From contig JBAXUB010000005.1 of assembly GCA_037129895.1 (NCBI GenBank), positions 597 through 64,596 on the forward strand: 64,000 nucleotides of DNA, read 5' to 3'. The DNA comes from Candidatus Tayloriibacteriota bacterium (GTDB lineage: Bacteria; Patescibacteriota; Minisyncoccia; Phycocordibacterales; PALSA-1337). How positions within the stretch are numbered: the first letter of the stretch is position 1; every line of letters begins with the position of its first letter. This document shows, in pieces, positions 3,001-58,406 of this stretch. The position numbers and the translations under genes were made by a program. Under the pieces are notes generated by a model. The model was not told the DNA's origin. It ran no database searches and saw only the letters and a program-made list of their open reading frames with translations.

Positions 3001-5592
3001 CCCGTTGACTGCGCCTTGGGAAATACAACCTTTGCTTGGGCTCTGTCGACCGGAATTCCATGCGCGATAGCTACCGGTGCCAGGACTATCATTATTCACG
3101 ATGGTATTAATGACATAGTGCAAGGCAGAACTTGGGACCAGGCACTTTCTGATCTAAACGCAATCCGTGCATTAGTTACGACACAAGATTTATTTGTAGA
3201 TGAAATTCTACCCAGAACGACTGGTAATGATGCGCAGGCAGCCACTATTCGAACATGGAACGCAAATCTGGATGCCTGGTCTGCAGCCAATAACGCACAT
3301 TTTATCCGTAGCCACGATATTATGGGCAAAATCAGAGCATCGACTGGACTACTGGACGACCTTGGTTTCGACACTGCGGATGGTGTGCATCCGGCTACTG
3401 GTGGTAGCTATGTCCTATGGCATTTGTGGTTCGATGCTCTGGAAGCTGTTTATGGATATCCTATCAAAACAACGTGGACAGTCACTGCTAGTACTGGAAC
3501 AGGCGGATCGATCAGTCCTGCTGGAGTTACGAATATTGGAGAGGGAACGGATCAAACGTTTATAGTGACTCCAAGTGACTCATATACAGCAGAAGATATT
3601 CTAGTTGATGGAGTAAGTGTAGGTACGACTTCATTATCGTATACATTTACAAATGTTATAGCGGATCATACGATTGATGTTAGCTTTCAATCTCAAAATA
3701 GTATTCCGGCATCCCCTGTATCAATCTCCGCAGCCACTTCCACCTCCGGTCAAGCCACTGTCTCTTTCACTCCAAGCTCCAATGGCGGTTCTGCCATCCT
3801 TTACTATTTAGCTTCCTCAACTCCAGGAAACTTCACTGCCACATCGACAGGATCTCCCATCGTTGTCGCTGGTCTTACTAACGGTACCTCATATACCTTT
3901 GCTGTGTATGCTGTGAATGCTTTAGGAACCAGCACATCTTCAAGTGATTCAAATGCAGTGGTACCGATCGGTCTTCCTACTGCCCCAACAGACGTAACAG
4001 CTACAGCAGGCAACACTCAAGTAGTTATCAATTTCAGTGCCCCAGGTTCAAATGGCGGCAGTGCCATTACCGGATATACCGTGACATCGAGTCCTTCTGG
4101 AGGCATTGATACAAATGCTGGCGGAACTGCGCTTACGCATACCGTCACAAGTCTTACTAACGGTATCTCGTACACCTTTACTGTAACTGCAACAAACGTG
4201 GTTGGTACAGGAAGTGCTTCAAGTCCTTCATCTTCAGTCACTCCTTCAACTGTTGCTGCCGTTTCAACAAACGTGGTTACTAGTATAGCTTCTACTAGCG
4301 CCACCGTGAGTGGTTCGATCACTTCAACGGGTGGGTCTGACGCAAGCCAGCATGGCTTTGCATACGGCACTGTTGCTAACCTCTCAACCGTGACTGCAAC
4401 TACCACTCTAGGGTCTCAAACTGGTACAGGCACGTTCACAAGCTTTGTGACTGGTCTAACAGCCAATACCACATACTATGTCCGTGCCTATGCTGTAAAT
4501 GCCTCAGGTACAACAACTGGTTCAATCATTTCCTTCCTAACTCTTCCTGCTATTCCGACTGTGACCACACAAGCTCCGACAGCTGGCTCAGGCATATACT
4601 TCACTGCTAACGGCAATATCACTGCAACTGCCGTGAACGCTACTGTTCGAGGTTTCGTCTACGGCACTACGAATACATACGGAGCGACAACTACGGAGAA
4701 TGGTTCATTCACTACAGGCGCATATACTGCCACGATTTCTGGTCTTGCTTGTAACACGCTATATCATGTCAAGTCCTATGCATTAAATACCGGAGGTACT
4801 GGCTATGGTTCTGATCAGACTATTACAACTGATGTTTGTACCAAACCAACAGTTGCCACTTCTACTCCTACAGGAATCACTACAACTGGAGCTACCTTGA
4901 ATGGTTCTATCACAGCCGACAACAATGCTTCATCTACAGTTGAAGGTTTCAATTGGGGTAATGATACGAATTATGGCCAGACGGCTTCGACAAATGGTAC
5001 ATTCGGCACTGGCTCATTCTCACAGACATTAAGCGGTCTAACATGCAACGCCACATATCACTACCAAGTTTTTGCTACAAATTATGCGGGCCAAGGCACT
5101 TCGGGTGACGAGATATTCAGCACATCAGCATGTTCTGTAACTCCTACACCTGCGGTACAAAGTTCTAGTTCAGGTGGAGGAGGAAGTGCTTCAAGCCGAG
5201 TCAACAATCTGATAGCAATGGGTAATTACACACTAGCGCAACAGATAGCTAAACAATTTGGAATCATAATCCTGACCCAGTCTTTGCTAAAAGAAAATTT
5301 GCCAGTTTCGAAATCGTCGCAAACATTTACAAAAACTTTGAAACTTGGAATGACTAATAGTGATGTAAAAAGATTACAAATATTCTTAAATACGCAAGGC
5401 TTCATTGTTGCAAAGCAAGGTGCCGGTTCTCTCGGACATGAGACAATGTATTTCGGACAGGCTACGAAAGCTGCTCTGAAGAAGTTTCAGTTAGCCTACA
5501 GGAAGGAAATACTTGATCCGCAGGGATTGAAGAGTCCGACGGGGCTGTTTGCATCAGGCTCTATGAAAGTTGCAAATGGACTATTAAAATAA
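16..5592 (+). CDS. Giant (1858 aa) surface protein with repeated beta-strand adhesin-like repeats, fibronectin-III-like repeats, an embedded SGNH/GDSL-hydrolase-like segment and a C-terminal peptidoglycan-binding domain. The 5' end may be incomplete.
   Basis: The ORF is uninterrupted and carries ANTYTGGT-type beta-strand repeats. Repeated YAVNA.GTS FN3-like units follow. An ITGDSIA ... DGVHP segment near 2880-3480 resembles an SGNH esterase. The C-terminus has a PG_binding_1-like stretch (TNSDVKRLQIFLNTQGF...ATKAALKKFQ). An in-frame stop sits 3 nt upstream of the ATG at 16, and there is no signal peptide at this start. Confidence 0.7.
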   Translation: MTSSGFAVFVSGSASLTINNGTNTAIDQNTSSGQAVRWGSTGTLSITGNIVGASGTGYAIRFTTAPASATINGNITYGGTSSNFIDLSGSTLTINGSVTNSSSGSTLAPGLGTIIINGSVTNSSTGKGVYVTGSANLTIANGTDTAIDVNSSSGVTSAGVYWSSTGTLSITGNIIGASGTGVAINILTAPTLASVTGNVIYGSTGQGLIRAGAGGLTINGSITNTSSGRAISVSGSANLTVSNGTNTAIDENTSSGYGIYWDSTGTLSITGNIVGASGTGTALYIRTAPTSASLTGSVNYGSTNTSGLVQINTGSLVVSGDISKTSSGYAIGMQTSGNLIISSGTITGTSVFLSGIGSLTINGGAVTLGNANTYTGGTILNAGSLTIGKSSTGAAGNVTNGPVGTSTLTLNGGTLNSSGNYTVNNGILIAGSTNVGGINSLTLGGAISVGDNILNVTNTAGTITLNGPISGTGGITLSGTGTLTLGVDYTAGPILITDTTAIAKTFAGGGHSFGNLTVSGDNVIITGNNTISTLAVNTAGLTNGLKLASGSTQTISNLTTNGSAGNLAKLVASTTGSTATLSKSSGLISVDYMSIKDSTANGGASWNAGVNSVNVSGNSGWLFSLPPSNLTVSTDLPSLVSTSTMILNGSITVDGTASSTLRGFAWGTSSNLTTGTATTTESGTFGVSSFSTSTIVFIPNTTYYFRAYAGSSQGTTTGSILSTTTLPWNVPDAPTIGTVATSSPNKATIPFTPAGNGGSPVLYYLASSTPGNIMATSTVSPITVSGLTNGTSYTFKVYAVNAVGTSTPSSVSNAVIPNASYARSTWRTEEGATVGPQVVTNGSFADSTGWIIPTGGSISGGKATWTQSGSFRQNVTLDTDSYYEFIYTVSDYTYGAIHVQGWNERSADRYGPGTFRDIIYFPTGSSMFLINGSDTFSGSVSYISVRKITPGIANWNPRVVAITGDSIAQHQAVMNPDTYPGNTTYGFSLAQDGITPVDCALGNTTFAWALSTGIPCAIATGARTIIIHDGINDIVQGRTWDQALSDLNAIRALVTTQDLFVDEILPRTTGNDAQAATIRTWNANLDAWSAANNAHFIRSHDIMGKIRASTGLLDDLGFDTADGVHPATGGSYVLWHLWFDALEAVYGYPIKTTWTVTASTGTGGSISPAGVTNIGEGTDQTFIVTPSDSYTAEDILVDGVSVGTTSLSYTFTNVIADHTIDVSFQSQNSIPASPVSISAATSTSGQATVSFTPSSNGGSAILYYLASSTPGNFTATSTGSPIVVAGLTNGTSYTFAVYAVNALGTSTSSSDSNAVVPIGLPTAPTDVTATAGNTQVVINFSAPGSNGGSAITGYTVTSSPSGGIDTNAGGTALTHTVTSLTNGISYTFTVTATNVVGTGSASSPSSSVTPSTVAAVSTNVVTSIASTSATVSGSITSTGGSDASQHGFAYGTVANLSTVTATTTLGSQTGTGTFTSFVTGLTANTTYYVRAYAVNASGTTTGSIISFLTLPAIPTVTTQAPTAGSGIYFTANGNITATAVNATVRGFVYGTTNTYGATTTENGSFTTGAYTATISGLACNTLYHVKSYALNTGGTGYGSDQTITTDVCTKPTVATSTPTGITTTGATLNGSITADNNASSTVEGFNWGNDTNYGQTASTNGTFGTGSFSQTLSGLTCNATYHYQVFATNYAGQGTSGDEIFSTSACSVTPTPAVQSSSSGGGGSASSRVNNLIAMGNYTLAQQIAKQFGIIILTQSLLKENLPVSKSSQTFTKTLKLGMTNSDVKRLQIFLNTQGFIVAKQGAGSLGHETMYFGQATKAALKKFQLAYRKEILDPQGLKSPTGLFASGSMKVANGLLK

Positions 5593-5597
5593 CAGCT

Positions 5598-6167
5598 ATG
5601 AACGATGACCAATCTCAAGATACACCAGTAACAGCTGAAATAGCCCAGACTCCAGAAATACCCACTTCTAACCAACCGACAGCATCGGAACCTGCCGATA
5701 TGCCCCCAGAGGCCCCAGAATTGCCCACAAACGCTTCAACAAACGTTCCTGTAGAAAGTCAAAATGGAGCAGTAAATACGTCAGAAAGCGAGGTGCCAGA
5801 ATCATCAAATGAGGCTCCAATTCCAGAACCTGTCCAGCCAGTTCCAACGGAATCTGCGCCGTCCGCGCCGGCGCCAGTGACACCGCCAGTACCACAACGC
5901 CAATCGCCGGCGCAACAAGATCAAACCGGATTCATCCGCGCACTGTTAGCGAAAGCTCAAGCTAAAATCCAGTCAAACAAACAGAAGAAGTTCGACAAGA
6001 TCATTTTATTCGCACAGAAAAAGAAAATCGTAGCCAATGAAGACATTCAACTTCTTTTGCATGTCTCAAGTGCTACTGCGACGAGATATTTGGTCAAATT
6101 AGTTCAGCAAGATCATCTATATCGCGTAGGGAATCCACGCGATGCTAAATATCAATTCCTACGTTAA
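5598..6167 (+). CDS. Small protein with an acidic Pro-rich N-terminus and a C-terminal winged-helix-like domain. It is a paralog of 57444..57971.
   Basis: It starts 5 nt after the giant gene stop. The C-terminal ~70 aa (ATATRYLVKLV...PRDAKYQ) is conserved with the protein at 57444..57971. Confidence 0.6.
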   Translation: MNDDQSQDTPVTAEIAQTPEIPTSNQPTASEPADMPPEAPELPTNASTNVPVESQNGAVNTSESEVPESSNEAPIPEPVQPVPTESAPSAPAPVTPPVPQRQSPAQQDQTGFIRALLAKAQAKIQSNKQKKFDKIILFAQKKKIVANEDIQLLLHVSSATATRYLVKLVQQDHLYRVGNPRDAKYQFLR

Positions 6168-6174
6168 AAATGTC

Positions 6175-6203
6175 TGTGGCTCATATCCACCAATTGAGCC
6201 ACA
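6175..6203. repeat. Small palindromic hairpin element (TGTGGCTCA-N11-TGAGCCACA), copy 1 of 3
   Basis: It has a perfect 9-bp stem. Related copies lie at 6430..6458 and 57980..58008. Confidence 0.6.
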
Positions 6204-6233
6204 TGTGTTTCTGATTTATCACTACGCTCCGCC

Positions 6234-6406
6234 GAGAAGCGGCCGACTTCCGCTTCTCTCACTAACAGTTGTTCGCATCCAGAGGATGTCTGTATGGCGG
6301 AGCACTCCACGGTTGCGATTAGCAACGGTGGAAAGTGCGAGAGCCATTCGGACATCCGATGGGTGCGCCATGAACTCAATCAGAAGCGGAAGTGGGCCGC
6401 TTCGAA
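6234..6406. repeat. ~175-bp intergenic repeat (family C) with hairpins at both ends, copy 1 of 3
   Basis: It begins with GAGAAGCGGxCGAC..CGCTTCTCTCAC and ends with GAAGCGGAAGTGGGCCGCTTCGA. Copy 51521..51695 is homologous along the whole length, and copy 58018..58162 shares the termini. Confidence 0.6.
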
Positions 6407-6429
6407 CCGCGCGATTGTGATAGAATGGT

Positions 6430-6458
6430 TGTGGCTCAAATGGTGGAATTGAGCCACA
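6430..6458. repeat. Palindromic hairpin element, copy 2 (identical to 57980..58008)
   Basis: TTGTGGCTCAAATGGTGGAATTGAGCCACA occurs at both places. Confidence 0.6.
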
Positions 6459-6509
6459 TCGAACCCGCCCCCAAAAACCACATTCCACCGCACGACCAAA
6501 ACAAATAGT

Positions 6510-6559
6510 GAGGGCGGACGGAGTCCTTCCCCCACACCCCCAGTCCTCCGTCCGCCCTC
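6510..6559. repeat. GC-rich hairpin with a 14-bp perfect stem (GAGGGCGGACGGAG / CTCCGTCCGCCCTC) and a C-rich loop (CCCCCACACCCCC)
   Basis: The inverted repeat was read directly. The loop motif recurs in reverse complement in the repeat B hairpin at 52004..52048. Confidence 0.5.
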
Positions 6560-6754
6560 TCCACCTTTTTGTGATTTCAAAGAAAACAGCGTCGCGCAGC
6601 GACTCCGTATTTCATTCACAGAGAAGTCACGCATCAGGATTTTCAGCGAAATAAGTTCGAACTTCAAGTAAAAACTGCCGCAAAAAAAATGAGCGAGCTT
6701 GCGAGCGAATGTTTTTTGCGTGAGAGAGCGACGCGACTGCTCGCGTCGCGTGAA

Positions 6755-6855
6755 GGGATTCGAAGAGGTTCTCCCATATTTTCGAGACCCCGAAGCTTTA
6801 GCGGAGGGGTAGAGAAAATGGGAAACCTGTACTGAAGCTGTAAGCTTCGAATCCC
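6755..6855. repeat. ~100-nt imperfect long inverted repeat (GGGATTCGAAG ... CTTCGAATCCC) with nested inner stems. It may be a structured RNA or a DNA element.
   Basis: The outer arms are 11 bp and perfect. The inner arms (ggttctcccatattttc / gagaaaatgggaaacc) are complementary but imperfect. Confidence 0.4.
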
Positions 6856-6871
6856 TTCCTCTCCGCAAAAG

Positions 6872-6886
6872 TTGCCAAATTGGCAA
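6872..6886. promoter_or_regulatory. Perfect 15-bp palindrome TTGCCAAATTGGCAA upstream of the wHTH gene, a candidate operator (copy 1)
   Basis: An identical palindrome sits at 11792..11806 in the duplicated cassette. It is followed by a second palindrome ATACCGCAGAA.(A/C)TGC(A/G)GTAT. Confidence 0.4.
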
Positions 6887-6960
6887 GATTCAACCTTTAG
6901 AAAATACCGCAGAACCGTGCAGTATTTCGTTTTCCACTCACATAGTGATTCCTGCTCAAG

Positions 6961-7278
6961 ATGCTGAAAGTTGTCGTGTGTGGCAAACCAAGTAAACAGA
7001 TGTCCACACCTTTCGTACCACAGGTGGTACGTTATACTACGTACCTTTCTATGCCCCAATTATTGCAACCCCTTGAACCAAATGATACAGAGAAGGCCGT
7101 CATCCACAAAGTGTGTATGGGGCTGATAAAGTACTTTAGCACTCCCGAAGGAGTAGAGGTGGGGAATAGTCAAGGTGAGCTCAGGTGTGGCGAAAGAGGG
7201 TATGGTGTTATGAGGATTCATAAAAAACAGCACAGAGGGTTTTCCTCTGCGCCGATGTGCTGCCAACGTCGAATTTAA
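6961..7278 (+). CDS. Divergent copy of a small LexA-N-terminal-like wHTH protein. It may be degenerate.
   Basis: Its C-terminal third is homologous to 11866..12186, but the N-terminal part is unrelated at DNA level. Its 3' end overlaps the hairpin terminator of the convergent small gene. Confidence 0.3.
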   Translation: MLKVVVCGKPSKQMSTPFVPQVVRYTTYLSMPQLLQPLEPNDTEKAVIHKVCMGLIKYFSTPEGVEVGNSQGELRCGERGYGVMRIHKKQHRGFSSAPMCCQRRI

Positions 7279-7288
7279 TCGCAAACAC

Positions 7289-7450
7289 TCATGTGATTAG
7301 TAGTTGAACTGCTGCTTTGACAAGTAACAGTGCTACGGCCGCCGTCATAAGACCAATGATGATGCCAACTTTCTGTCCTCGGTCAAATGCATGTTGGCGA
7401 TTGAGTAATTCCTGGCTATCGCCAGCGGTTTGAATGCAGTTATCTTCCAT
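7289..7450 (-). CDS. Small 53-aa protein with a C-terminal transmembrane helix (MEDNCIQTAGDSQELLNRQHAFDRGQKVGIIIGLMTAAVALLLVKAAVQLLIT). It is a paralog of 12440..12613.
   Basis: Translated by hand. It falls below the 60-aa ORF-track cutoff. The two copies differ mostly by conservative substitutions. A hairpin plus T-run terminator follows on the minus strand at ~7225-7250. Confidence 0.5.
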   Translation of the reverse strand: MEDNCIQTAGDSQELLNRQHAFDRGQKVGIIIGLMTAAVALLLVKAAVQLLIT

Positions 7451-7581
7451 AAGTACTCCAAGTTGTTAATGTTGCTGTGGATTCTGTCCTCTAACTATAT
7501 ATTACGCGCTTTATACGTTAACGCAAGAACACAACAGGCTGTTGTAATCTTTGTGAGTTTGTGCGATACTTGACAAATCAC

Positions 7582-7653
7582 CGCGGGGTAGGGTAATGGT
7601 AACCCACGAGGCTCATAACCTCGGATATGTCGGTTCGACTCCGGCCCCCGCAA
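7582..7653 (+). tRNA. Initiator tRNA-fMet (anticodon CAT)
   Basis: It was folded by eye into a cloverleaf with a TTCGACT T-loop and a CTCATAA anticodon loop. It has a C1:A72 mismatch, and its termini (CGCGGGG...CCGGCCCCCGCAAC) closely match E. coli initiator tRNA. CCA is not encoded. Confidence 0.8.
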
Positions 7654-7715
7654 CAAGTATTGACTTTTCTAATAAATCATGTAACTGTATAGCCAGAAAA
7701 TCTTTGACAATCTAT

Positions 7716-11739: not shown

Positions 11740-11791
11740 TCAATAGACGATTTAATTCCATTCGGACATCGTCCCAAGCTCCCCGCAAAAA

Positions 11792-11806
11792 TTGCCAAAT
11801 TGGCAA
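11792..11806. promoter_or_regulatory. Palindrome TTGCCAAATTGGCAA, candidate operator (copy 2)
   Basis: It is identical to 6872..6886 and lies ~60 bp upstream of the wHTH gene. Confidence 0.4.
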
Positions 11807-11865
11807 GATTCAACCTCTAGAAAATACCGCAGAATCATGCGGTATTTTCGTTTTCCATTCAAATA

Positions 11866-12186
11866 GTGATTCCTGCTCAAGACGATGAAGACACGGCAAG
11901 ATTTGCCGCTTTGAGCGAAACAGAAAAGAAAGCGCTCATATTCATTGAAAAAGAGTCCTTATACTACAGATCACCGTCAGTGCGAGTGCTAGCAAATCAT
12001 GTTGGCCTCAAGTCATCACGATCTGGTGTGAGGATAATTAGAAAGTTGGTTGCGGATGGTTTTGTGGTGAAGAATAAGCGAGGTGAGCTCAAGTGTAGTG
12101 AAAGAGGGTATGGTGTTATGTGTATTTATAAAAAACAGCGCAGAGGGTTTTCCTCTGCGCCGATGAGCTGCCAATGTTGCATTTAA
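11866..12186 (+). CDS. Small wHTH protein resembling the LexA N-terminal DNA-binding domain, with no peptidase domain
   Basis: ETEKKALIFIEKESLYYRSPSVRVLANHVGLKSSRSGVRIIRKLVADGFV follows the LexA_DNA_bind pattern. Confidence 0.5.
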   Translation: MIPAQDDEDTARFAALSETEKKALIFIEKESLYYRSPSVRVLANHVGLKSSRSGVRIIRKLVADGFVVKNKRGELKCSERGYGVMCIYKKQRRGFSSAPMSCQCCI

Positions 12187-12439
12187 TCGCAAACACTCAC
12201 TGATTTTGCTGATTCCTCTTGGAAGTAAGGTTCTACTGCTCGCAGTGGCCCAGCAAGAATTCTTCTGAAGAAGGATCTAGACGGTGGGGGATTGCCACTC
12301 ATGTGAATTGCGATGATTCCTAAGTCGTTTACTGGGACTTTGTATGAGTCGGGTCCGAATTGTTCAAGTGACCTTCGACCCTGTCTTATCCGCCTTTTTC
12401 GTGTCATGTATGTTTTCATAATTGATCGTCGATCTACCA

Positions 12440-12613
12440 TCAATGCACAATGAACGTATTTAGCAGTTGAACTACTACTTTGACGAGCAACAGTGCTGCT
12501 ACCGTCGTCATAATACCGATGACAAAGCCAACTTTCTGACCTCCGTCAAATGCATGCTGACGGTTGATTAGTTCCTGGTCATCGCCAGTGGTTTGAATGC
12601 AGTTATCTTCCAT
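12440..12613 (-). CDS. Small 57-aa membrane protein, paralog of 7289..7450
   Basis: Hand translation gives MEDNCIQTTGDDQELINRQHAFDGGQKVGFVIGIMTTVAALLLVKVVVQLLNTFIVH. A hairpin plus T6 terminator follows on the minus strand at ~12140-12170. Confidence 0.5.
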   Translation of the reverse strand: MEDNCIQTTGDDQELINRQHAFDGGQKVGFVIGIMTTVAALLLVKVVVQLLNTFIVH

Positions 12614-12739
12614 AAGTACTCCAAGTTGTTAATATTGCTGTGGTTTCTGGCCTCTAACTATATATTACGCGCTTTATATGTTAATGCAAGAACACAACAG
12701 GCACTTGTCTTTGAGTTGTAGGAGGTATATAGTTGTTAT

Positions 12740-15680: not shown

Positions 15681-16031
15681 ATGGAAATACCAACACCATT
15701 TACAGAAAATCGTCCGTGGGGCGAAGAGTTGTGGTTGACGAAATCTACACCTTCAATGGTGAAGATCATAACTGTGAATCCGGGTGAATGTTGCAGTCTG
15801 CAATATCATCACAATCGAGATGAATTCTGGCGTGTATTATCAGGTAATGGTGTAGTTGAAATAGGTGATCTAAAAATGGAAACAAAACTCGGCGATAATC
15901 ATTTCGTACCAAGAGAGACCAAACATAGATTTACTGGTGGTAGTCAACCGCTCACTCTTCTAGAGATCACTTATGGACAGTTCGATGAAAATGATATTGT
16001 GCGCCTAGAGGACAAATATGGTCGTATATAG
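15681..16031 (+). CDS. Cupin-domain protein (mannose-6-phosphate isomerase-type cupin)
   Basis: It has a cupin_2-like GECCSLQYHHNRDEFWRVLSG motif. Confidence 0.55.
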   Translation: MEIPTPFTENRPWGEELWLTKSTPSMVKIITVNPGECCSLQYHHNRDEFWRVLSGNGVVEIGDLKMETKLGDNHFVPRETKHRFTGGSQPLTLLEITYGQFDENDIVRLEDKYGRI

Positions 16032-16051
16032 ATTATAATTATATTAATAGC

Positions 16052-17179
16052 ATGGACATTTATTCATTTCCAATAATTTCACTCTTCTTTGCCGGTTTGG
16101 TGATTTTGGTTTTGATTATATATATTTCAGTCCAACATATTTCTCATACGCGAGACGACTCATTTGAACGTCCACACCATAAACTTTCTCGTCATCACAA
16201 GAATCCAGTATTATCTCCTTTACCATTTTGTGAATGGGAAGCTGGTGGAACATTCAATCCTGCAGCATTTCAGGACGATGAAGGCAAGGTACATTTGTTA
16301 TATAGAGCTATCGGAGCTGACGGTTTGTCACGCGTAGGCTATGCAGGTAGTGGTGATGGTTATAATTTTGCTGGTCGTTCTACGTATCCCGTTTTTGAGC
16401 CGACTCTGGGATATGGTAAACCTGATCCTGCAAAAACCACTGGACCAAAGAAATATGATCCAAGTGTATATACTTCAGGTGGTGGTTGGGGTGGTTCTGA
16501 AGACCCAAGGACAGTGAGGATCGGTGACAGAGTGTATATGTCATATATTGCATTTGAAGGTTGGAATTCTGTACGCATCGCACTTACATCTATTCTTCTT
16601 GATGATCTCAAAAAGAAACGTTGGAATTGGAAACGTCCGCAGATCATTTCACCAGAAGGGCAAGTGGCGAAAAATTGGGTAATCTTTCCGGAAAAGATCG
16701 GTGGCAAGTTTGCCATAATACACAGCATTATTCCTAATATCGGTATAGAATATGTAGAAAATTTGGATAATATTAGTGAGAAGATAAGTAGCCCGAGACT
16801 TCATGGCCCACAACCTGGAAGAAAGAAATTCTGGGACAGTAGAGTACGTGGTGCAGGACCACCACCTCTTCGAACAGATAAAGGTTGGTTACTTCTATAT
16901 CATGCACAGGACGATCGTGAGCCTTCAAAATACAAACTCGGTGCGATGATACTGGATATCAATGACCCCACGAAGATACTGTATCGTTCACCACAACCAA
17001 TACTGACACCTGATATGCATTATGAGAATGATGGAAAACCAGGCATCGTCTATGCATCTGGTGCGGTCATAATAGGTGACAATCTGATGGTATATTATGG
17101 AGGTGGAGACAAACATGTATGTATTGCTGAGACACCACTTCGAGCATTGTTGGATTGGATGATTGAGTATGGTAAGTAA
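16052..17179 (+). CDS. GH130-family glycoside phosphorylase/hydrolase (beta-mannoside phosphorylase-like) with an N-terminal TM anchor
   Basis: It has FNPAAF..LLYRAIG, GSEDPR and YYGGGD motifs, plus an N-terminal hydrophobic helix. Confidence 0.65.
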   Translation: MDIYSFPIISLFFAGLVILVLIIYISVQHISHTRDDSFERPHHKLSRHHKNPVLSPLPFCEWEAGGTFNPAAFQDDEGKVHLLYRAIGADGLSRVGYAGSGDGYNFAGRSTYPVFEPTLGYGKPDPAKTTGPKKYDPSVYTSGGGWGGSEDPRTVRIGDRVYMSYIAFEGWNSVRIALTSILLDDLKKKRWNWKRPQIISPEGQVAKNWVIFPEKIGGKFAIIHSIIPNIGIEYVENLDNISEKISSPRLHGPQPGRKKFWDSRVRGAGPPPLRTDKGWLLLYHAQDDREPSKYKLGAMILDINDPTKILYRSPQPILTPDMHYENDGKPGIVYASGAVIIGDNLMVYYGGGDKHVCIAETPLRALLDWMIEYGK

Positions 17180-17269
17180 GCATGAAGTATTAGGGAATAA
17201 GTATCGATACGAATATACGAATTATCTTAATGATACGAATAGGGTTTTTACAAAATTTTAGCTATTACA

Positions 17270-19165
17270 ATGTTTACAATTACCAGATCTGAGAAAAATC
17301 CTATACTCTCGCCAAACGAAGACCATCCATGGGAGTCTAATGCCGTTTTCAACGCGTCTCCGGTTGTACATAAACGAAAGATGTGTCTAGTGTATCGTGC
17401 CATGTCAGGGCCAGACCTCTTGAAGGAGCCGCATATACGAACATCAGTCATCGGACGAGCATTCCAAAGTGGTGGAGAGTACACAGATAGAAAGGTTCTC
17501 GTTAATGCAGATACTGATTTTGATCGATATGGCTGTGAGGATCCTAGAGTGACCAAAATGGATGGTAAATATTATATTTTTTATACAGCGCTTGGCGGTT
17601 ATCCATATTCTGCAGAGAATATTCGCATAGCGGTTGCTGTATCAGATGACCTAGAGACTATCACTGAGAAGCATCTAGTAACAACTTTCAACTCGAAAGG
17701 CATGGCTCTATTCCCAGAAAAGATCGGCGGCAAATATGCAGCACTAGTTACGATCAATACCGATCAACCACCATCACAGATCTGTTATGTCGAGTGCGAC
17801 AAGATCGAGGACTTGTGGTCAGAAACATTCTGGGCTGATTGGTTGAAGAAAGTCGATACAAATAAACTGGATGTGAGACGAAGACCTGATGAGCATATAG
17901 AGTTAGGCGCAGCACCGATCATGACTGACCTCGGTTGGCTCATAGTCTATGCACATATACAGAGGTATGGTCATCCTGATCAGGCTTTTGGTATAGAAGC
18001 TGTGTTACTCGACAAGAAGTATCCGAGGAAAGTGATCGGCCGTACCAAGGGCCCATTCATGATTCCTGAAACGTATTATGAGAGGATCGGTGATGTACCG
18101 AATGTTATATTTCCATCAGGTGTTATGATCCGAAAAGGTAGGCTGGAGATACACTATGGTGCAGCAGATACACATTGTGCGATAGCGACTGTACCTATCG
18201 CGGAATTATTGCGAGCCATGACAGGAGATGACAAGAAAGTCGTCAAGCGTTTTCCAGGTAACCCTATAATTTCACCGAGGAATGGCTATTTCTGGGAGAC
18301 TTTGGGAACTCTGAATTCTGCTGCTATAGATATAGATGAGAAGATATATATCCTGTATCGTGCTGTGTCTGATAGGAATGTCTCGACTATAGGTTGTGCT
18401 ATCTCTCTAGACGGACTCACGATAAAGGAGCGTCTAGATAAGCCAGTGTATTCACCTCGAGAATCTATAGAGACCAATGGTTCTCAAAGTAATTTTGGCT
18501 GTGAAGATCCTCGACTCGTAAGGATCGATGACAAGATATTCATGATCTATACTGCATATGATGGAACAACGCCTAGAGTTGCGGTCACTTCTATAAGTGT
18601 GAAAGATTTTACAGCTAGACGTTTTGCCAACTGGTCGAAGCCAGAGGCGATCACACCAGCCGGTATACCTGACAAAGATGCTGTTATATTGCCAGAGATG
18701 GTCAATGGAAAATATATGGTGATACATCGTGTTAATGAAAGTATATGTGCGGATTTTGTTCCGTCTCTAGATTTTGTTAAAGAGAAAGTAAATAAATGTA
18801 TTGAAATATTGGGCCCTCGTCATGGCATGTGGGACGGTCTCAAGGTGGGTATCTCTACACCGGCGATAAAGACTGACAAGGGGTGGCTGCTCCTATACCA
18901 TGGAGTTTCGTGGAGTTCTATATACCGCGTGGGAGCAATATTACTCGACAAGGATGATCCGACTGTGGTACTCGCTCGTACTTCTGCGCCGATACTGGAA
19001 CCAGAAACAAAATATGAGACACATGGAATAGTATCCAGTGTCGTGTTTCCTTGTGGAACTGTTGTACGGAATGGTCTCATATACATCTATTATGGTGGAG
19101 GAGACAAGATCGTCGGAGTGGCAACTGTGAAATTGACTGATATAATGAAGATGTTGGAAGTCTAG
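17270..19165 (+). CDS. Tandem-domain GH130-family protein (two GH130 repeats)
   Basis: Two copies of the GCEDPR...YTA..G architecture with the NAS/NSAA N-terminal motif are present. Confidence 0.65.
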   Translation: MFTITRSEKNPILSPNEDHPWESNAVFNASPVVHKRKMCLVYRAMSGPDLLKEPHIRTSVIGRAFQSGGEYTDRKVLVNADTDFDRYGCEDPRVTKMDGKYYIFYTALGGYPYSAENIRIAVAVSDDLETITEKHLVTTFNSKGMALFPEKIGGKYAALVTINTDQPPSQICYVECDKIEDLWSETFWADWLKKVDTNKLDVRRRPDEHIELGAAPIMTDLGWLIVYAHIQRYGHPDQAFGIEAVLLDKKYPRKVIGRTKGPFMIPETYYERIGDVPNVIFPSGVMIRKGRLEIHYGAADTHCAIATVPIAELLRAMTGDDKKVVKRFPGNPIISPRNGYFWETLGTLNSAAIDIDEKIYILYRAVSDRNVSTIGCAISLDGLTIKERLDKPVYSPRESIETNGSQSNFGCEDPRLVRIDDKIFMIYTAYDGTTPRVAVTSISVKDFTARRFANWSKPEAITPAGIPDKDAVILPEMVNGKYMVIHRVNESICADFVPSLDFVKEKVNKCIEILGPRHGMWDGLKVGISTPAIKTDKGWLLLYHGVSWSSIYRVGAILLDKDDPTVVLARTSAPILEPETKYETHGIVSSVVFPCGTVVRNGLIYIYYGGGDKIVGVATVKLTDIMKMLEV

Positions 19166-49099: not shown

Positions 49100-49801
49100 T
49101 TGATGAATACAAGTTGGAATAAAGGACTTACAAAATATACGCACCCGTCAATTATGATGACTTCAGTAAAAATGAAGGCTAAAGCGGTAGATAATTTATT
49201 TTCTTGGCGAGAGATGGCTAAAAAACAAGGAAAAATGCGGAGCGTATACCCGATATTGAAGCGCGATGGAGATCTCGCAGAGCTTATCGGTGTTATTCTT
49301 GGAGATGGACATTTGAGAAAATATCCACGTACCGATGAATTGTCGATCTTTTCTAATTCAACAAACGAAGGAATTGTCAGGAGATATAGTGGTCTGGTAG
49401 AGCGTATATTTGATATGAAACCTGCAGAAACTATTCACAGTGGAAAGAAATGTATTAGGATTAGAATATATCAAAAATTCTTGCAGGAACGAATACAGAT
49501 CCCATATAGTCCGCGGGGCAAATTGGACATAGTTGTACCGGACTGGATTTTGGGCGATATTTCCTTTATAGTTAGGTATCTTCGTGGTTTATACGAAGCT
49601 GAGGGATCATATAGTGTTCATCTGCCAACATCTACATATAAATTGTTCTTTTCGAATAGAAACATGTCGATGTTATCAAATGTGAAAATTTTGTTGGAGA
49701 AGCTTGGTTTTCATCCTCATTTGAGTAAGGATAAGGTTCAAGTATCTAGAAAAGAAGAAGTTGTGAAATTGCTAGAATTAATCGAGTTTAGAAAGTATTG
49801 A
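49100..49801 (+). CDS. Free-standing LAGLIDADG-family homing-endonuclease-like protein (two LAGLIDADG motifs)
   Basis: It has LIGVILGDGHL and YLRGLYEAEGSY motifs. It ends 7 nt before tRNA-Gln. Confidence 0.6.
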   Translation: MMNTSWNKGLTKYTHPSIMMTSVKMKAKAVDNLFSWREMAKKQGKMRSVYPILKRDGDLAELIGVILGDGHLRKYPRTDELSIFSNSTNEGIVRRYSGLVERIFDMKPAETIHSGKKCIRIRIYQKFLQERIQIPYSPRGKLDIVVPDWILGDISFIVRYLRGLYEAEGSYSVHLPTSTYKLFFSNRNMSMLSNVKILLEKLGFHPHLSKDKVQVSRKEEVVKLLELIEFRKY

Positions 49802-49808
49802 AAATTTA

Positions 49809-49879
49809 TTGCGGGATCGGCTAATGGTAGGCCACATCCCTCTGGAGGATGTTATCTTGGTTCGAGTCCAAGTCCCGCA
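49809..49879 (+). tRNA. tRNA-Gln (anticodon CTG)
   Basis: It was folded by eye. The acceptor stem is TGCGGGA/TCCCGCA, the D stem GGCT/GGCC, the anticodon stem CATCC/GGATG with loop CTCTGGA, the T arm CTTGG-TTCGAGT-CCAAG, and the discriminator G. CCA is not encoded. Confidence 0.75.
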
Positions 49880-51434
49880 GCAATTTCGCAAAAATCGCAG
49901 AATCGCCCGAAAAAGGCGAAAGAATCGCAGAATATGGAGGGCGGGGCGGAATTCCCCCCTGAAACCCCCCTTCCGCCCCGCCCGCATCTTTGCTCACGTT
50001 TTTGGGAATTTTCGTGACGAAAGCAAAAGGAAAATGCGGAGAAAAAATGAGGGTGCGGTTGAGGACGAGTGGGTTCGAACCGACTTTTTCAAAGAATGAT
50101 CGAATTTTCGTAGTATCTGTACTCTCTGCCAAAATAGAGGCTTCCTTGCAGTCTTTTAGGAAGTTAATCACTGGTTCGAACCGATCGTTAGAAACTTTAC
50201 CGAAAGCAGTAATTTTGTCCTTCAAAACCTGCTTTTCGGTTACAAGTTTGTTTTTGGTTGTCTGGTATTCTTCAAGAGTTAGGGCATTGCCAAGGTATGC
50301 AGTCATGAGTTTTTCTAGTTTAGCGTTAATGGCTAGTGCCTCATCACTTACTTTCTGAATCTGATTTTTCGAAGAGTCATCGTCCTTAGCTCGATCTTTC
50401 TCAACCTCTGCAATTAGCCAGTTTGCCACTTCATCAGAAAGTGATACTTTTTTTAGCTCCTCCTGAATGAGTGTTGTCATAGCTTCCTCACGAACGTATT
50501 TTTGTGAACATGGGCCTTTGTGCTTTGTACACCTCAAATAGTTATGACCCTTCTGGGTTTCAATCGTAAGGCAACAGCCACATTCAGCGCACTTGAACAG
50601 TCCGCGATACACATACGGCTTGAGATCACCGTCATGTTGGGGTTTGCTTTTTTTGGTCATAACTTCCTGGCATATATCAAAAATTTTCTTGGTGATGATT
50701 GGCTCATGCTTACCTTCGTAAAATTCACCATGAAAAAGTATGAGTCCGTGGTACAAATTATTTTTGAGTAGATACTGGTAGTTGGAAATAGAAAGTTCCT
50801 TGCCCTTGTGCCCAGTCAATCCAAGCTCGCCCATACTTTTACGGAGGGCTGATAGAGTATAATTTCCTGTAGCGTAAGTTTCAAAAGCTTTCTTGATGAA
50901 TGGTGCTTTTTCGGGATCAACAACTATCAATTTAGTTTTCTTGTCATTGAGGTAACCGATTGGAGCTTTCTGTGGCCAGATTCCATTCTTCAATTTTTGT
51001 TTGTAACTACGCTTTACATTTTCAGACAGATTGTCCACATAATATTTTGACTGCGAAAAAGAAATGGAAAGCATAAATTTTCCTTGGGGTGTTGCATCAA
51101 ACCAGAAAGTTGGAAATTTTAGGTCGGTGATAACACCGGTGTCCACCATATAAATAATTTTGCCACCATCCACCGAGTTACGAGCGAGCCTATCAGGATG
51201 CCATGCCAAAATGCCAGAGGCTTCTCTGGCTTCTATACGCTCCAACATCTCCGCAAATACAGGCCTACCAGGAGTTTTGGCAGTTTGTTTCTCGATGAAG
51301 ATGTCTACAACCTCCAATTGCTCCTTTTTGGCGAGCTCGCGTAGCTCGGAGAGCTGGTCGGCAAGAGATCTCACTTGCCGATCCTCGGTGTCGGTAGATT
51401 TTCTGGTATATATAAAATATTTTTTCTCACTCAT
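49821..51434 (-). CDS. Large serine recombinase (resolvase/invertase catalytic domain + recombinase domain + zinc ribbon)
   Basis: It has N-terminal YTRKSTDTEDRQVRSLADQ (catalytic Ser), the recombinase domain, and CAECGCC...CTKHKGPC. The 3' ~60 codons run through the left IR and over tRNA-Gln on the opposite strand, so the true stop is uncertain. Confidence 0.75.
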   Translation of the reverse strand: MSEKKYFIYTRKSTDTEDRQVRSLADQLSELRELAKKEQLEVVDIFIEKQTAKTPGRPVFAEMLERIEAREASGILAWHPDRLARNSVDGGKIIYMVDTGVITDLKFPTFWFDATPQGKFMLSISFSQSKYYVDNLSENVKRSYKQKLKNGIWPQKAPIGYLNDKKTKLIVVDPEKAPFIKKAFETYATGNYTLSALRKSMGELGLTGHKGKELSISNYQYLLKNNLYHGLILFHGEFYEGKHEPIITKKIFDICQEVMTKKSKPQHDGDLKPYVYRGLFKCAECGCCLTIETQKGHNYLRCTKHKGPCSQKYVREEAMTTLIQEELKKVSLSDEVANWLIAEVEKDRAKDDDSSKNQIQKVSDEALAINAKLEKLMTAYLGNALTLEEYQTTKNKLVTEKQVLKDKITAFGKVSNDRFEPVINFLKDCKEASILAESTDTTKIRSFFEKVGSNPLVLNRTLIFSPHFPFAFVTKIPKNVSKDAGGAEGGFQGGIPPRPPYSAILSPFSGDSAIFAKLLRDLDSNQDNILQRDVAYH

Positions 51435-51945
51435 GTTTGTATTTTACCAAATTTTTCAGAAAGCAAGAAATATTTTTTACATAAATCAGTGCATAAACAG
51501 TTAACAACTAAGCTCTCATCGAGAAGCGGTCGACTTTCGCTTCTTCTCACAGTAGTTTCTTCACGTCTCGCACATATCTGTATGGCGGACGCGCCCCACG
51601 ATTGCCCTAGCAACGGTGGGAAGCGCGGGAGCCGTTCTGGTATGTGCGTATGGCGTGCCACGAGACTCTGTAGAAGCGGAAGTGGGCCGCTTCGAGTCAC
51701 TGTGGTGTGTGTTTGTGTTTAAAAATAAAAAGTAAAAGAAGGTGAGTACCCATCTGGTCCTCAACCGCACCCTCATTTTTTCTCCGCATTTTCCTTTTGC
51801 ATTTGTAACGAAAATTCCCAAAAACGTGAGCAAAGATGCGGGCGGGGCGGAAGGGGGGTTTCAGGGGGGAATTCCGCCCCGCCCTCCATATTCTGCGATT
51901 CTTTCGCCTTTTTCGGGCGATTCTGCGATTTTTGCGAAATTGCTG
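49877..51945. mobile_element. IS-like element. A large serine recombinase gene is bounded by ~180-bp terminal inverted repeats (49877..50057 and 51757..51945). It is inserted at the 3' end of tRNA-Gln.
   Basis: The two ends are near-identical in inverted orientation. The left IR starts inside the tRNA 3' end (CAGCAA), and the right IR ends with TTGCTG. The IR carries an internal GC hairpin at 49936..49984. Confidence 0.6.
51521..51695. repeat. Family C intergenic repeat, copy 2
   Basis: It is homologous to 6234..6406 along its whole length and shares the terminal hairpins. Confidence 0.6.
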
Positions 51946-52150
51946 TCGTTTTTGAATGAAGTTCGAACGTTTTTCGCTGAAAATCCTCAAAATTAAGGAA
52001 GTCAGGCGGCACGGCAGGAGGGGTGTGGGGAGGAATGCCGTGCCGCCTTCCTACTGTTTTCTTTCTTTTTTTTCCGTCATGCACCTTGTGGAGCTCGGAC
52101 GATGCGGAACTCTTGTGTGGGGCGAGCTGTTTCCGCACGTCCTCGCGGGG
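51939..52150. repeat. ~210-bp repeat B, copy 1. It contains the hairpin AGGCGGCACGGCA-loop(GGAGGGGTGTGGGGAGGAA)-TGCCGTGCCGCCT at 52004..52048.
   Basis: The reverse-complement copy lies at 58197..58406, with only a few mismatches (~95% identity). Confidence 0.65.
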
Positions 52151-52236
52151 GATTTGGAGGACGATTTGGATTGAAATACTGTTAGAGATACGATTAGTTT
52201 ATACACAGCCCATATAAAGACTTTTGAGTATAAATC

Positions 52237-57390
<5,154 letters not shown>

Positions 57391-57443
57391 ACTATGATAG
57401 AAAGTTTGATAAATTATATTGAGAAAAAATGTAAAAATTTCTT

Positions 57444-57971
57444 ATGTCAGATGATCAAAACCAAGATATAAATCCACAACAAGAGCCACCACAAAGCCCT
57501 GAAGCAGTCACAGATGAAGCACCTATTCAGCAAGCCGATTCTATACCTACCGATATGCCCCCTGTGGCCCCAGAAGCCCCTAAGGACGCTTCTACCTCTG
57601 TTCCTGTAGAAGATCAAAATGGAGCAAATAAGGATGAAAATCAAGTATCAGAATCTCCAGCTGTGACCGCGCCAGCGCCACTAACCTCGGCTACTCCACA
57701 AACGCAATCGCTGGCGCAACAAGATGAACGTGGATTCATCAAGAGCTTGCTTATTAAAGCTCAAGCTAAAATACAATTTAACAAACAAAGAAAGTTAGAA
57801 AAAATCATTCAGCTAGCACAAAAGAAAGGAATAATTACAAATGATGATGTACAAAAACTTTTGCATGTCTCTGATGCAACTGCAACCAGATATTTAGTAA
57901 AATTAGTAGAACAAGGTCGTCTGACTCGCTTAGGTTCACCACGCGATGCTAAATATCAAATTGTACGATAA
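57444..57971 (+). CDS. Small Pro-rich protein with a C-terminal winged-helix-like domain, paralog of 5598..6167
   Basis: It has the same architecture and a conserved C-terminus (ATATRYLVKLVEQGRLTRLGSPRDAKYQ). Confidence 0.6.
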   Translation: MSDDQNQDINPQQEPPQSPEAVTDEAPIQQADSIPTDMPPVAPEAPKDASTSVPVEDQNGANKDENQVSESPAVTAPAPLTSATPQTQSLAQQDERGFIKSLLIKAQAKIQFNKQRKLEKIIQLAQKKGIITNDDVQKLLHVSDATATRYLVKLVEQGRLTRLGSPRDAKYQIVR

Positions 57972-57979
57972 AATAGTCT

Positions 57980-58008
57980 TGTGGCTCAAATGGTGGAATT
58001 GAGCCACA
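57980..58008. repeat. Palindromic hairpin element, copy 3
   Basis: Identical to 6430..6458. Confidence 0.6.
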
Positions 58009-58017
58009 GAGGTTCTC

Positions 58018-58162
58018 GAGAAGCGGTCGACTTTCGCTTCTTCTCACTGAAATCTATTCGTGTTCGGAGGAAGTCGGTTCGGCGATTAGCCGTACGGACT
58101 GACGACGAATGCGCCACTAAACTATATGGAAGCGGAAGTGGACCGCTTCGAATGATTTGATG
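58018..58162. repeat. Family C intergenic repeat, copy 3 (termini conserved, interior divergent)
   Basis: GAGAAGCGGTCGACTTTCGCTTCTTCTCAC ... GGAAGCGGAAGTGGACCGCTTCGAA. Confidence 0.55.
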
Positions 58163-58196
58163 AAATACGTTTTGAAATATTTTGAACCCCGCGAGG

Positions 58197-58406
58197 ACGG
58201 TGCGGAAACCTTTTGCCCCACACAATAGTTCCGCATCGTCCGAGCTCCACAAGGGCATGACGGAAAAAAAAGAAAGAAAACAGTAGGAAGGCGGCACGGC
58301 ATTCCTCCCCACACCCCTCCTGCCGTGCCGCCTGACTTCCTTAATTTTGAGGATTTTCAGCGAAAAACGTTCGAACTTCATTCAAAAACGACAGCAAGAT
58401 TTTTTT
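58197..58406. repeat. Repeat B, copy 2, in inverted orientation
   Basis: It is the reverse complement of 51939..52150. It ends with the same ...AAAAACGACAGCAA junction that abuts the right IR of the recombinase element. Confidence 0.65.

Follow-up and report, generated by a model that had tools for sequence, protein, structure and literature searches.

A putative 8.5-kb integrative element at a tRNA-Gln gene in Patescibacteria, with its own large serine recombinase and an inverted internal attachment site

In a 64,000-nucleotide stretch of the genome of a Candidatus Tayloriibacteriota bacterium (contig JBAXUB010000005.1; this whole stretch is referred to here as the window), a gene for a large serine recombinase (LSR) and a gene for a giant surface protein lie next to each other beside a tRNA-Gln gene, each within its own pair of long inverted repeats. 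Our analysis suggests, with a probability that we put at about 65%, that positions 49878-58397 constitute one integrative element of ~8.5 kb, located at the 3' end of tRNA-Gln and equipped with its own LSR, an attL site, an internal inverted attP site and an attR site. The anatomy is conserved across a large family in Patescibacteria, with a characteristic half-site geometry, target tRNAs that switch between LSR clades, and variable cargo. The architecture is apparently an undescribed variant of the integrative elements of large serine integrases, widespread in Patescibacteria; no description of it was found in the literature searched, the coverage of which was incomplete.

An inverted-repeat search of the find_repeats type over ~7 kb around tRNA-Gln, followed by pairwise alignment of the arms, identified a repeat pair, IR-A, at 49878-50069 and 51754-51945 (repeat arms are given without strand). 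The arms are 192 nt long and 98% complementary, with 3 mismatches and a spacing of 1,684 nt, and identity drops away directly outside them. Because the remaining inverted matches in the same 7 kb are just 20 to 28 nt long at 71 to 80% identity, IR-A lies well above chance. The left arm ('a') starts with the final 3 to 4 nt of tRNA-Gln (CAG, then CAA), encodes LSR residues ~456-519 on the minus strand, and has two AATCGCAGAAT repeats as well as a GC-rich hairpin whose loop is C-rich; the right arm, rc('a'), is its reverse complement and ends in TTGCTG. A later repeat search of the whole window revealed a second pair, IR-B, at 51940-52150 and 58187-58397 (143 nt at 100% identity plus 55 nt at 91%), which abuts IR-A and has the hexamer TTGCTG in common with its right arm. 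The left arm of IR-B, rc('b'), comprises a P-type half-site (see below), in which GTTCGAAC stands at a distance of 22 nt from the core, and a GC hairpin and a T-run that follow it; the right arm is 'b' itself. IR-A brackets the LSR gene and E2, one of several copies of a structured element (E) described below, and IR-B brackets the surface-protein gene, a winged helix-turn-helix (wHTH) gene and a further copy, E3. An earlier reading of this DNA, made from the letters and here called the sequence-only reading, had reported long near-identical repeats of ~180 bp around the recombinase gene, a left arm starting from the tRNA end, a right arm ending in TTGCTG, and junctions that both read (G/A)CAGCAA, all of which agree with our results; it had allowed for the repeats being direct, and the arms are inverted. 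IR-B was absent from that reading. Each of the arms carries a GC-rich hairpin with a C-rich loop (49936-49985, 51838-51887, 52005-52055 and 58283-58330), the opposite strand of which has G-runs such as GGGCGGGGCGGAAGGGGGGTTTCAGGGGGG that could form a G-quadruplex. In the IR-B arm this hairpin is followed by a T-run on the strand entering the cargo and may serve as an insulating terminator.

A CAGCAA core is common to three sites, in direct orientation between sites 1 and 3 and inverted at site 2. Written in a common orientation, site 1 (49878-49883, plus strand) is the junction tRNA|a and reads ...GGTTCGAGTCCAAGTCCCG CAGCAA TTTCGCAAAAATCG..., site 2 (51940-51945, minus strand; TTGCTG on the plus strand) is the junction b|a and reads ...GTTCGAACTTCATTCAAAAACGA CAGCAA TTTCGCAAAAATCG..., and site 3 (58392-58397, plus strand) is the junction between b and flanking DNA X and reads ...GTTCGAACTTCATTCAAAAACGA CAGCAA GATTTTTTTATGCC.... 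Site 3, at which the core recurs in direct orientation beside the half-site also seen at site 2, 6.4 kb further along, would form the right end of the 8.5-kb element, and the cores at 49878 and 58392, both on the plus strand, represent a short direct sequence of which one copy stands at the end of the target gene. Identity around site 2 reaches ~200 nt to each side, and it is this identity on each side of the third site that leaves the integrase module bracketed by IR-A and the cargo module by IR-B. The flanks of the 2-kb segment at 49877-51945 read ..CCG|CAGCAA and TTGCTG|TCG..., so that its hexamers are inverted and part of the repeat, with no direct target duplication. The sequence-only reading had taken this segment for a whole element resembling an insertion sequence (IS) or transposon, a view not supported in light of the inverted end cores, the lack of a direct duplication, the continuation of the half-site past the right arm and the direct core at 58392. 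Its remark that long inverted repeats are unusual for serine integrases stands, and the IS-like build that it derived from them does not, as short att-like sites lie at the repeat tips. The earlier view is thus supported in part, the repeat-bracketed 2-kb segment probably representing the integrase module of an 8.5-kb island and not a standalone IS.

The target gene, tRNA-Gln(CTG), occupies 49810-49881 on the plus strand (ARAGORN, 49810-49881; Rfam RF00005, 49810-49880, 57.8 bits) and does not encode CCA. These two predictions, together with the start of the arm in the last 3 to 4 nt of the tRNA, uphold the earlier placement of the recombinase element exactly at the tRNA-Gln 3' end. A scan of one genome per GTDB species, in which each locus was compared to itself, gave 80 loci of the family, all in Patescibacteria-type metagenome-assembled genomes (MAGs); MAG titles naming other phyla are probably binning noise. 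In nearly all of these loci the 3' end of the LSR gene abuts the 3' end of a convergent tRNA gene. Targets in the closer clade are Gln(CTG/TTG), Lys(CTT) or Ser, and the clade with 57 to 64% LSR identity uses tRNA-Ser of any anticodon; tRNA-Ile and tRNA-Arg cases were seen among metagenome loci. The target tRNA switches between LSR clades, and the core equals the tRNA 3' end in every case (CAGCAA, GCACAAA, or CCGCCA/CCGCAA). In L020 and L078 the LSR 3' flanks consist of a common non-tRNA sequence (..CACGGGTAC..AACCCGA..CCGCAAA), perhaps a target provided by the 3' end of a different structured RNA gene.

Over ~40 nt outside the distal IR-A arm, the loci contain a conserved sequence, ..GAAAAA.GTTCGAAC TT..T.CAA.., after which comes a core that corresponds to the target, and this b half-site is kept even at loci in which no IR-B was detected. 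In the cleanly scored loci, 26 of 26, TTCGAA is 22 nt away from the core in b, as opposed to 17 nt away in the tRNA T-loop (loci with regex mis-hits, or with truncated or diverged arms, were left out of this count). In large serine integrases, the outer DBD2 motif lies 5 bp nearer the centre in attB half-sites than in attP half-sites (PMC11722253). Because the 5-bp offset of TTCGAA matches this rule, we read a B-type half-site in the T-arm and 3' acceptor strand of the tRNA and a P-type half-site in b. Given these two assignments, site 1 would be attL (B|P'), site 2 would be an intact attP (P|P') that is inverted with respect to sites 1 and 3, and site 3 would be attR (P|B').

The LSR gene (49821-51434, minus strand) is the one LSR gene within the 64-kb window, and its 537-aa product gives Pfam matches above cut-off to Resolvase (PF00239, 73.8 bits, cut-off 23.3), Recombinase (PF07508, 45 bits) and Zn_ribbon_recom (PF13408, 30.4 bits), in agreement with the sequence-only reading of a 537-aa large serine recombinase between the repeats. 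That reading had made its case conditional on the catalytic serine; the nucleophile S13 is present, in YTRKST, and both R11 and S13 are invariant in 20 homologues. Residues ~340-440, between the zinc-ribbon parts, form a heptad-rich segment, a putative coiled-coil region that is conserved. The open reading frame (ORF) continues across IR-A and the core and ends in antisense tRNA sequence, 11 nt inside the tRNA 5' end, so that the earlier description of an ORF that stays open past the left repeat into the antisense tRNA was accurate, and only its crossing of the whole tRNA was not. Codon ~456 of the LSR marks the start of IR-A in both clades, and residues 456-494 show partial conservation between clades (F464 is invariant, and P466, R467, G490, G493 and G494 are conserved to at least 90%), indicating that the inner portion of the arm is real coding sequence, and the final ~20 residues, which are set by the sequence past the core (antisense tRNA or b), are probably without importance. 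An extended -10-like motif, TGGTAAAAT, was read from the sequence 6 nt before the LSR ATG and is conserved in L094; its position suggests a leaderless LSR transcript from a promoter inside the cassette. Promoter and terminator scans gave counts no better than those from shuffles. Homologues of the LSR number in the thousands, at 57 to 93% identity, and belong to Patescibacteria wherever they are named. The nearest annotated phage integrases show 24 to 29% identity, and a PDB sequence search with the LSR gave the catalytic-domain match 3g13 and nothing else.

We propose that attP x attB integration by the LSR would place the element at the tRNA-Gln 3' end, and that attL x attR excision by the same enzyme would release it. 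attL would then consist of the B-type half-site in the tRNA T-arm and acceptor stem joined to 'a' as P', and attR of the P-type half-site 'b' joined to host DNA X. The internal b|a junction between the integrase module and the cargo would be the attP of the excised element, in inverted orientation, and this spare attP might react with other tRNA genes that have the same 3' end, giving arrangements like that at L062 (see below). In an extension of this proposal, which is tempting and which we consider doubtful, the inverted spare attP would be a working part and not a relic: an LSR without a directionality factor would react on after integration, flipping modules, using either attP and recombining with tRNA genes of the same 3' end, with chromosomal inversions or cassette exchange as the outcome, and E would be a dedicated cofactor or regulator made of RNA or single-stranded DNA (ssDNA).

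The layout recurs throughout the family. Of 82 loci, 71 have IR-A, the arms of which are 99.2% identical in the median and measure 120 nt in the distant clade and ~190 nt in the close clade, and most of the 11 loci that lack it stop at a contig edge beside the LSR gene. An abutting IR-B was found in 17 of the 43 loci with at least 5.4 kb upstream; it is 86 to 434 nt long, overlaps IR-A by the core and encloses 1.5 to 6 kb. The IR-B of L171 encloses 10.3 kb of cargo, which implies that the 6-kb flanks underestimate the frequency of IR-B. Arms are near-identical within a locus and 77 to 91% identical between loci, a pattern that points to homogenisation or to selection for complementarity as its likely basis. 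Since the layout is also found in closed long-read MAGs, including OY969557.1 and OY969413.1, it is not an assembly artefact. OY969557.1 holds three divergent copies, 70 to 83% identical to the query, at tRNA-Lys, at tRNA-Gln and at one unidentified site, and not several near-identical copies. Assemblers break at any inverted repeat longer than k, which explains why homologue contigs of ~2 kb are common, and a public contig with this very LSR protein breaks inside the right arm.

Both the LSR and the cargo behave as mobile DNA would be expected to. LSR proteins are 85 to 94% identical between syntenic loci at which housekeeping proteins (CTP synthase, FtsE/X and RF) are 58 to 83% identical, and the cargo between the b arms, behind the conserved integrase module, varies among loci with common flanks. 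The Ser clade carries XRE-type helix-turn-helix (HTH) genes together with membrane or ATPase genes, and further cargo includes methyltransferase/SWI2-SNF2, SocA and toxin-antitoxin-like genes, a GDSL/Peptidase_S74 protein and giant surface proteins. A search of viral contigs with the LSR gave three truncated close relatives (L083, L084 and L085); in L083, an IMG/VR contig, genes for an amidase, a LysM protein and an SU10-type adaptor follow the LSR 3' end across an a|b junction. Near one family member, L092 contains a separate small element (15745-18009) with a rolling-circle Rep (REP_ORF2-G2P), followed by a different serine recombinase of 490 aa and an rve transposase.

About 90% of the loci have the standard orientation, with the tRNA at the LSR 3' end and b on the 5' side. 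The tRNA lies on the LSR 5' side in L011, L047 and L080; the LSR 3' end faces the 3' end of the cargo in L083, L094/95, L106 and L175 and the 5' end of the cargo in L162; and in L062 the integrase module lies between two convergent tRNA-Ser genes. Of these, L047, in which the arms have just 54 nt in common, is a convincing orientation variant. In the 120 best LSR homologue clusters, the end of the C-terminal tail is encoded by antisense tRNA (..DSNQ/P..) at least 44 times and by the b arm (..EVRTFFAENP..) at least 22 times. At L062 (5763-7581) the tRNA-Ser genes (GGA and GCT) form identical tRNA|a junctions at both sides of the integrase module, the arrangement that a reaction between the inverted attP and a second attB, namely the second tRNA gene, would give; L062 may be such a product. 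Module inversion over evolutionary time thus seems likely, and the two repeat-bounded modules could invert either through the action of RecA on the repeats or through the LSR, RecA acting on arms of 120 to 430 bp being the conservative explanation for the flips. The orientation variants were seen by comparing assemblies, and active switching within one population is hypothetical. Sister-sample contigs L098, L154 and L158 were considered as proof of inversion and rejected, L158 being best explained as a chimera through the common arm. A model of double-flip isomers alone, with integration via either of two attPs in the circle, was likewise rejected as the sole explanation, given that L162 is a single flip and that the standard orientation is ~10-fold commoner.

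Several points tell against the proposal of an 8.5-kb integrative element with a spare attP. Its weakest link is that 'a' mirrors 'b' only weakly, the P' label being taken from position and not from motif symmetry. L005 and L056 lack IR-A despite adequate flanking DNA, and L106 has a b|a junction at the LSR 3' end with no repeats within 14 kb. The orientation variants come mostly from short-read assemblies, which are unable to phase a segment between identical repeats longer than k, and the standard orientation is the one seen at all eight long-read loci (8/8). The pairs attL x attP and attP x attP are not among the reactions of canonical LSRs (PMC11722253), so that module inversion driven by the LSR would be unexpected. 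No recombination directionality factor was identified. The sequence-only reading had named further copies and empty sites in related genomes as a check; the copies exist, as described above. No empty tRNA-Gln|X site, sought as a tRNA-Gln that continues into sequence other than 'a', was found among the fetched loci, and no homologue of flank X was found. Similarly, no circular junction distinguishable from site 2 was found, the b|a junctions in L083, L094 and L175 fitting a circle or a flipped integrated form alike.

The arrangement of a recombinase gene inside a repeat-bounded segment beside a surface-protein gene also invites comparison with a Hin-like phase switch, in which the LSR would flip its own cassette, and possibly the cargo, to switch a giant surface-protein operon. 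E is directed from the cassette to the cargo, both cassette orientations occur among assemblies (L047, L011, L080, L094/95, L162 and L175), and the division of LSR tails between the b arm and the tRNA, given above (at least 22 and at least 44 of 120), would fit such a switch. We nevertheless consider it unlikely, because the outer half-sites are unequal (B-type tRNA and P-type b) with identical inner halves, a pair that canonical LSRs do not recombine; because a hairpin and T-run separate site 2 from the surface-protein gene and a promoter-like motif for the LSR lies within the cassette itself; and because the standard orientation dominates, in the long-read loci (8/8) as elsewhere. Moreover, the cargo is variable and includes phage, methyltransferase/helicase and toxin-antitoxin genes, and a tRNA-end target with horizontal spread fits an integrase better. 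The view advanced in the sequence-only reading, in which the 2-kb cassette a-LSR-rc(a) would be autonomous, an IS-like transposon whose terminal inverted repeats measure 192 bp and which inserts alone at tRNA 3' ends, accounts for the single recombinase gene between terminal repeats, the many LSR homologues on ~2-kb contigs, the several copies per genome and the cassette standing alone between two tRNA-Ser genes in L062. The inverted end cores make it quite improbable: conservative serine recombination between them inverts and cannot excise, unless the crossover dinucleotide is palindromic, and CAA, the only motif common to the cores of all clades, is non-palindromic (a GC dinucleotide is also present). 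In addition, there is no direct target duplication, the conserved half-site beyond the right arm belongs to the system, the closed-genome copies are 70 to 83% identical to the query and at different targets, and so do not reflect recent transposition, and contigs of ~2 kb are what assemblers are expected to produce at inverted repeats longer than k.

The universality of the inverted b|a copy and the almost perfect complementarity of the arms would also be accommodated if the inverted attP allowed a single-stranded form of the element to fold back into a double-stranded attP, as in the CTX phage with its two inverted att halves, with E as a single-strand promoter or origin; the strand-specific hairpin of E (-51 versus -41 kcal/mol with DNA parameters), on the template strand just upstream of the LSR, is in keeping with this. 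Serine recombinases, however, cut both strands, which would leave hairpin-capped chromosome ends, and the tRNA-Ser clade has the same repeats without E. The element also has no rolling-circle or ssDNA replication gene, and we regard fold-back as very improbable. That the repeats are an assembly artefact has next to no chance of being correct: contigs often break at these repeats and L158 looks chimeric through an arm, but the same architecture occurs at 71 independent loci, from many projects and assemblers and in closed long-read genomes, with arm sequences that are specific to each locus.

The structured element E is represented by three copies in the window, all on the plus strand. E2 (51515-51700) is a rod-like structured element of ~185 nt, RNA or ssDNA, that points from the LSR start to site 2 and lies inside a GC-rich stretch of 320 nt separating the LSR start from the distal IR-A arm; E3 (58012-58156) is a shorter copy downstream of the wHTH gene that points to site 3; and E1 (6228-6410) belongs to a second element, upstream of a b'-type arm. 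E2 folds into one long rod with a minimum free energy of -103.6 kcal/mol (z -9.5) on the plus strand, compared with -76.1 kcal/mol (z -4.0) on the minus strand, and the asymmetry holds with DNA energy parameters (-51 versus -41 kcal/mol). In a covariation analysis of 23 sequences, pairing is kept in 95.4% of cells and compensatory changes were seen for 16 of the 43 pairs; none of 500 shuffles was as good, and slid controls reached at most 6. G-U pairs mark the plus strand as the probable functional strand, and the basal helix of 21 bp is conserved in sequence. Over the whole window, Rfam gave no match for E at gathering thresholds (tRNAs only), and at E <= 10 on 49700-52300 it gave nothing over 51515-51700, with chance-level miRNA-like matches on the GC hairpin only. 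A search for the E hairpin in viral contigs gave no match.

A metagenome scan for the 3' hairpin of E gave 79 loci. In 27 of them E is found immediately 5' of an LSR start, in divergent orientation, and in ~45 it lies 20 to 40 nt downstream of a wHTH gene of ~190 aa; wherever the sequence suffices, a GTTCGAAC half-site follows ~210 to 300 nt downstream of E. These contexts identify wHTH-E-b as the conserved right end of this clade. E ranges from ~145 to 200 nt and is always tied to element ends (window copies and loci L096-L174); the tRNA-Ser clade is without E. The candidates for its nature are an RNA made from the element ends and a single-strand DNA signal. An identity as 6S RNA or signal recognition particle (SRP) RNA was rejected, there being no model match and three copies in 64 kb, all at element ends, and a role as target guide was rejected on the grounds that E subtypes do not follow the target tRNA. 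A conserved hairpin of ~30 nt (TGTGGCTCAAATGGTGGAATTGAGCCACA and variants) flanks the E copies at cargo ends (6169-6204, 6424-6459 and 57974-58009; L002, 20859-20925 and 21131-21197).

The LSR resembles those of phages and integrative elements (phiC31, Bxb1, A118/LI, SPbeta SprA and TP901-1) in its Resolvase, Recombinase and zinc-ribbon domains with a coiled coil, in the position of the integrase gene beside the attachment site, in the 5-bp offset between B and P half-sites and in the short core common to the sites. Unlike them, it is at most 29% identical to any annotated phage integrase, its element targets tRNA 3' ends and keeps a complete inverted attP, 120 to 430 bp of identity surround the sites, and the ORF crosses the crossover core. 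The Hin/Gin/Cin/Pin switches likewise have a serine recombinase gene in or beside an inverted-repeat segment, near surface or host-range genes, but they depend on small recombinases, identical sites of 26 to 34 bp and a Fis-dependent enhancer, whereas here an LSR is accompanied by non-equivalent attL-like and attP-like sites and repeats of ~200 bp. In Tn4451/Tn4453 (TnpX), Tn5397 (TndX) and the IS607 family, a serine recombinase is the sole mobility enzyme of a small element, as here; these elements have short imperfect ends or none, use a direct crossover dinucleotide and excise as circles, and, to our knowledge, long perfect inverted repeats flanking the recombinase gene are found in none of them, nor is a fixed target at tRNA ends. 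In topology alone, the layout recalls the class E genome of herpes simplex virus and the yeast 2-micron plasmid, which have two unique segments, each in its own inverted repeats. In those systems as in this element, the junction inside repeats the joined termini in inverted form, and up to four isomers are possible; enzymes, scale and biology are unrelated, and for the element described here isomerisation would be a prediction from the layout. Islands that target tRNA genes with tyrosine integrases also integrate at the tRNA 3' end and regenerate it, and rearrangements between tRNA genes are possible in both (compare L062), but those islands use a different recombinase superfamily and have direct repeats only. 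In Thermococcus, the pTN3 integrase reportedly drives chromosome inversions between tRNA genes.

Serine integrases are valued in genome engineering because they are simple and one-directional, and a large natural family with a second, inverted attP and long homogenised arms suggests use or regulation outside the attP x attB and attL x attR scheme. The family supplies ready-made predicted att sites for Patescibacteria, a group with few genetic tools, and is a candidate vehicle for surface-protein, methyltransferase/helicase, toxin-antitoxin-like and phage genes among reduced genomes. It is also a possible cause of rearrangements between tRNA genes, and it explains the breaks in MAG assemblies at these loci. 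In E, the analysis further yields a structured element that is supported by covariation and missing from Rfam.

The cargo of the element consists of a gene for a 1717-aa surface protein with two Laminin_G_3 domains and an fn3 domain (52237-57390, plus strand) and a wHTH gene, the conserved right-end gene of the element clade, which encodes a 175-aa winged-helix protein with an AbiEi_4/DeoR-type HTH at its C terminus as judged by Pfam (57444-57971, plus strand). Site 2 is separated from the surface-protein gene by a hairpin and a T-run. Within the 5' part of its coding sequence, this gene has an (AC)18 tract at 52270-52305, translated as THTHTH..., where adding or removing a single unit would cause a frameshift; such a tract is a classic signature of slipped-strand phase variation and is independent of DNA inversion.

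Outside the element, a two-motif LAGLIDADG endonuclease-like ORF (49100-49801, plus strand; LAGLIDADG_3, E 4.9e-10) ends 8 nt before tRNA-Gln, confirming an earlier observation of such a gene beside the same tRNA, with the distance amended from 7 nt. A homologue with 53% amino acid identity occupies the same place in L004 (7630-8325), and short fragments with 61% identity are present in L013/L014 (7665-7874), with none at the syntenic loci L002, L005 and L009. This recurrence and absence indicate that the LAGLIDADG gene is an independent, patchy element tied to the 5' side of tRNA-Gln.

The window also contains the right end of a second, paralogous element (16-6683, plus strand), comprising a surface-protein gene (product of 1858 aa), a wHTH gene (189 aa), E1 at 6228-6410 and, at 6460-6683, an arm of type b'. 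This arm ends in the core CCGCAA, and its P half-site is of the tRNA-Ser type, identical to that in the elements L019, L020 and L022. The integrase module of the second element would lie upstream of the window start, so that the genome has at least two elements of the family. Finally, ~700 nt of non-coding or short-ORF sequence (6852-7545), located immediately before tRNA-Met (7582-7654), has a second copy 4.9 kb downstream, at 11772-12708, with 86 to 91% identity in four collinear blocks.

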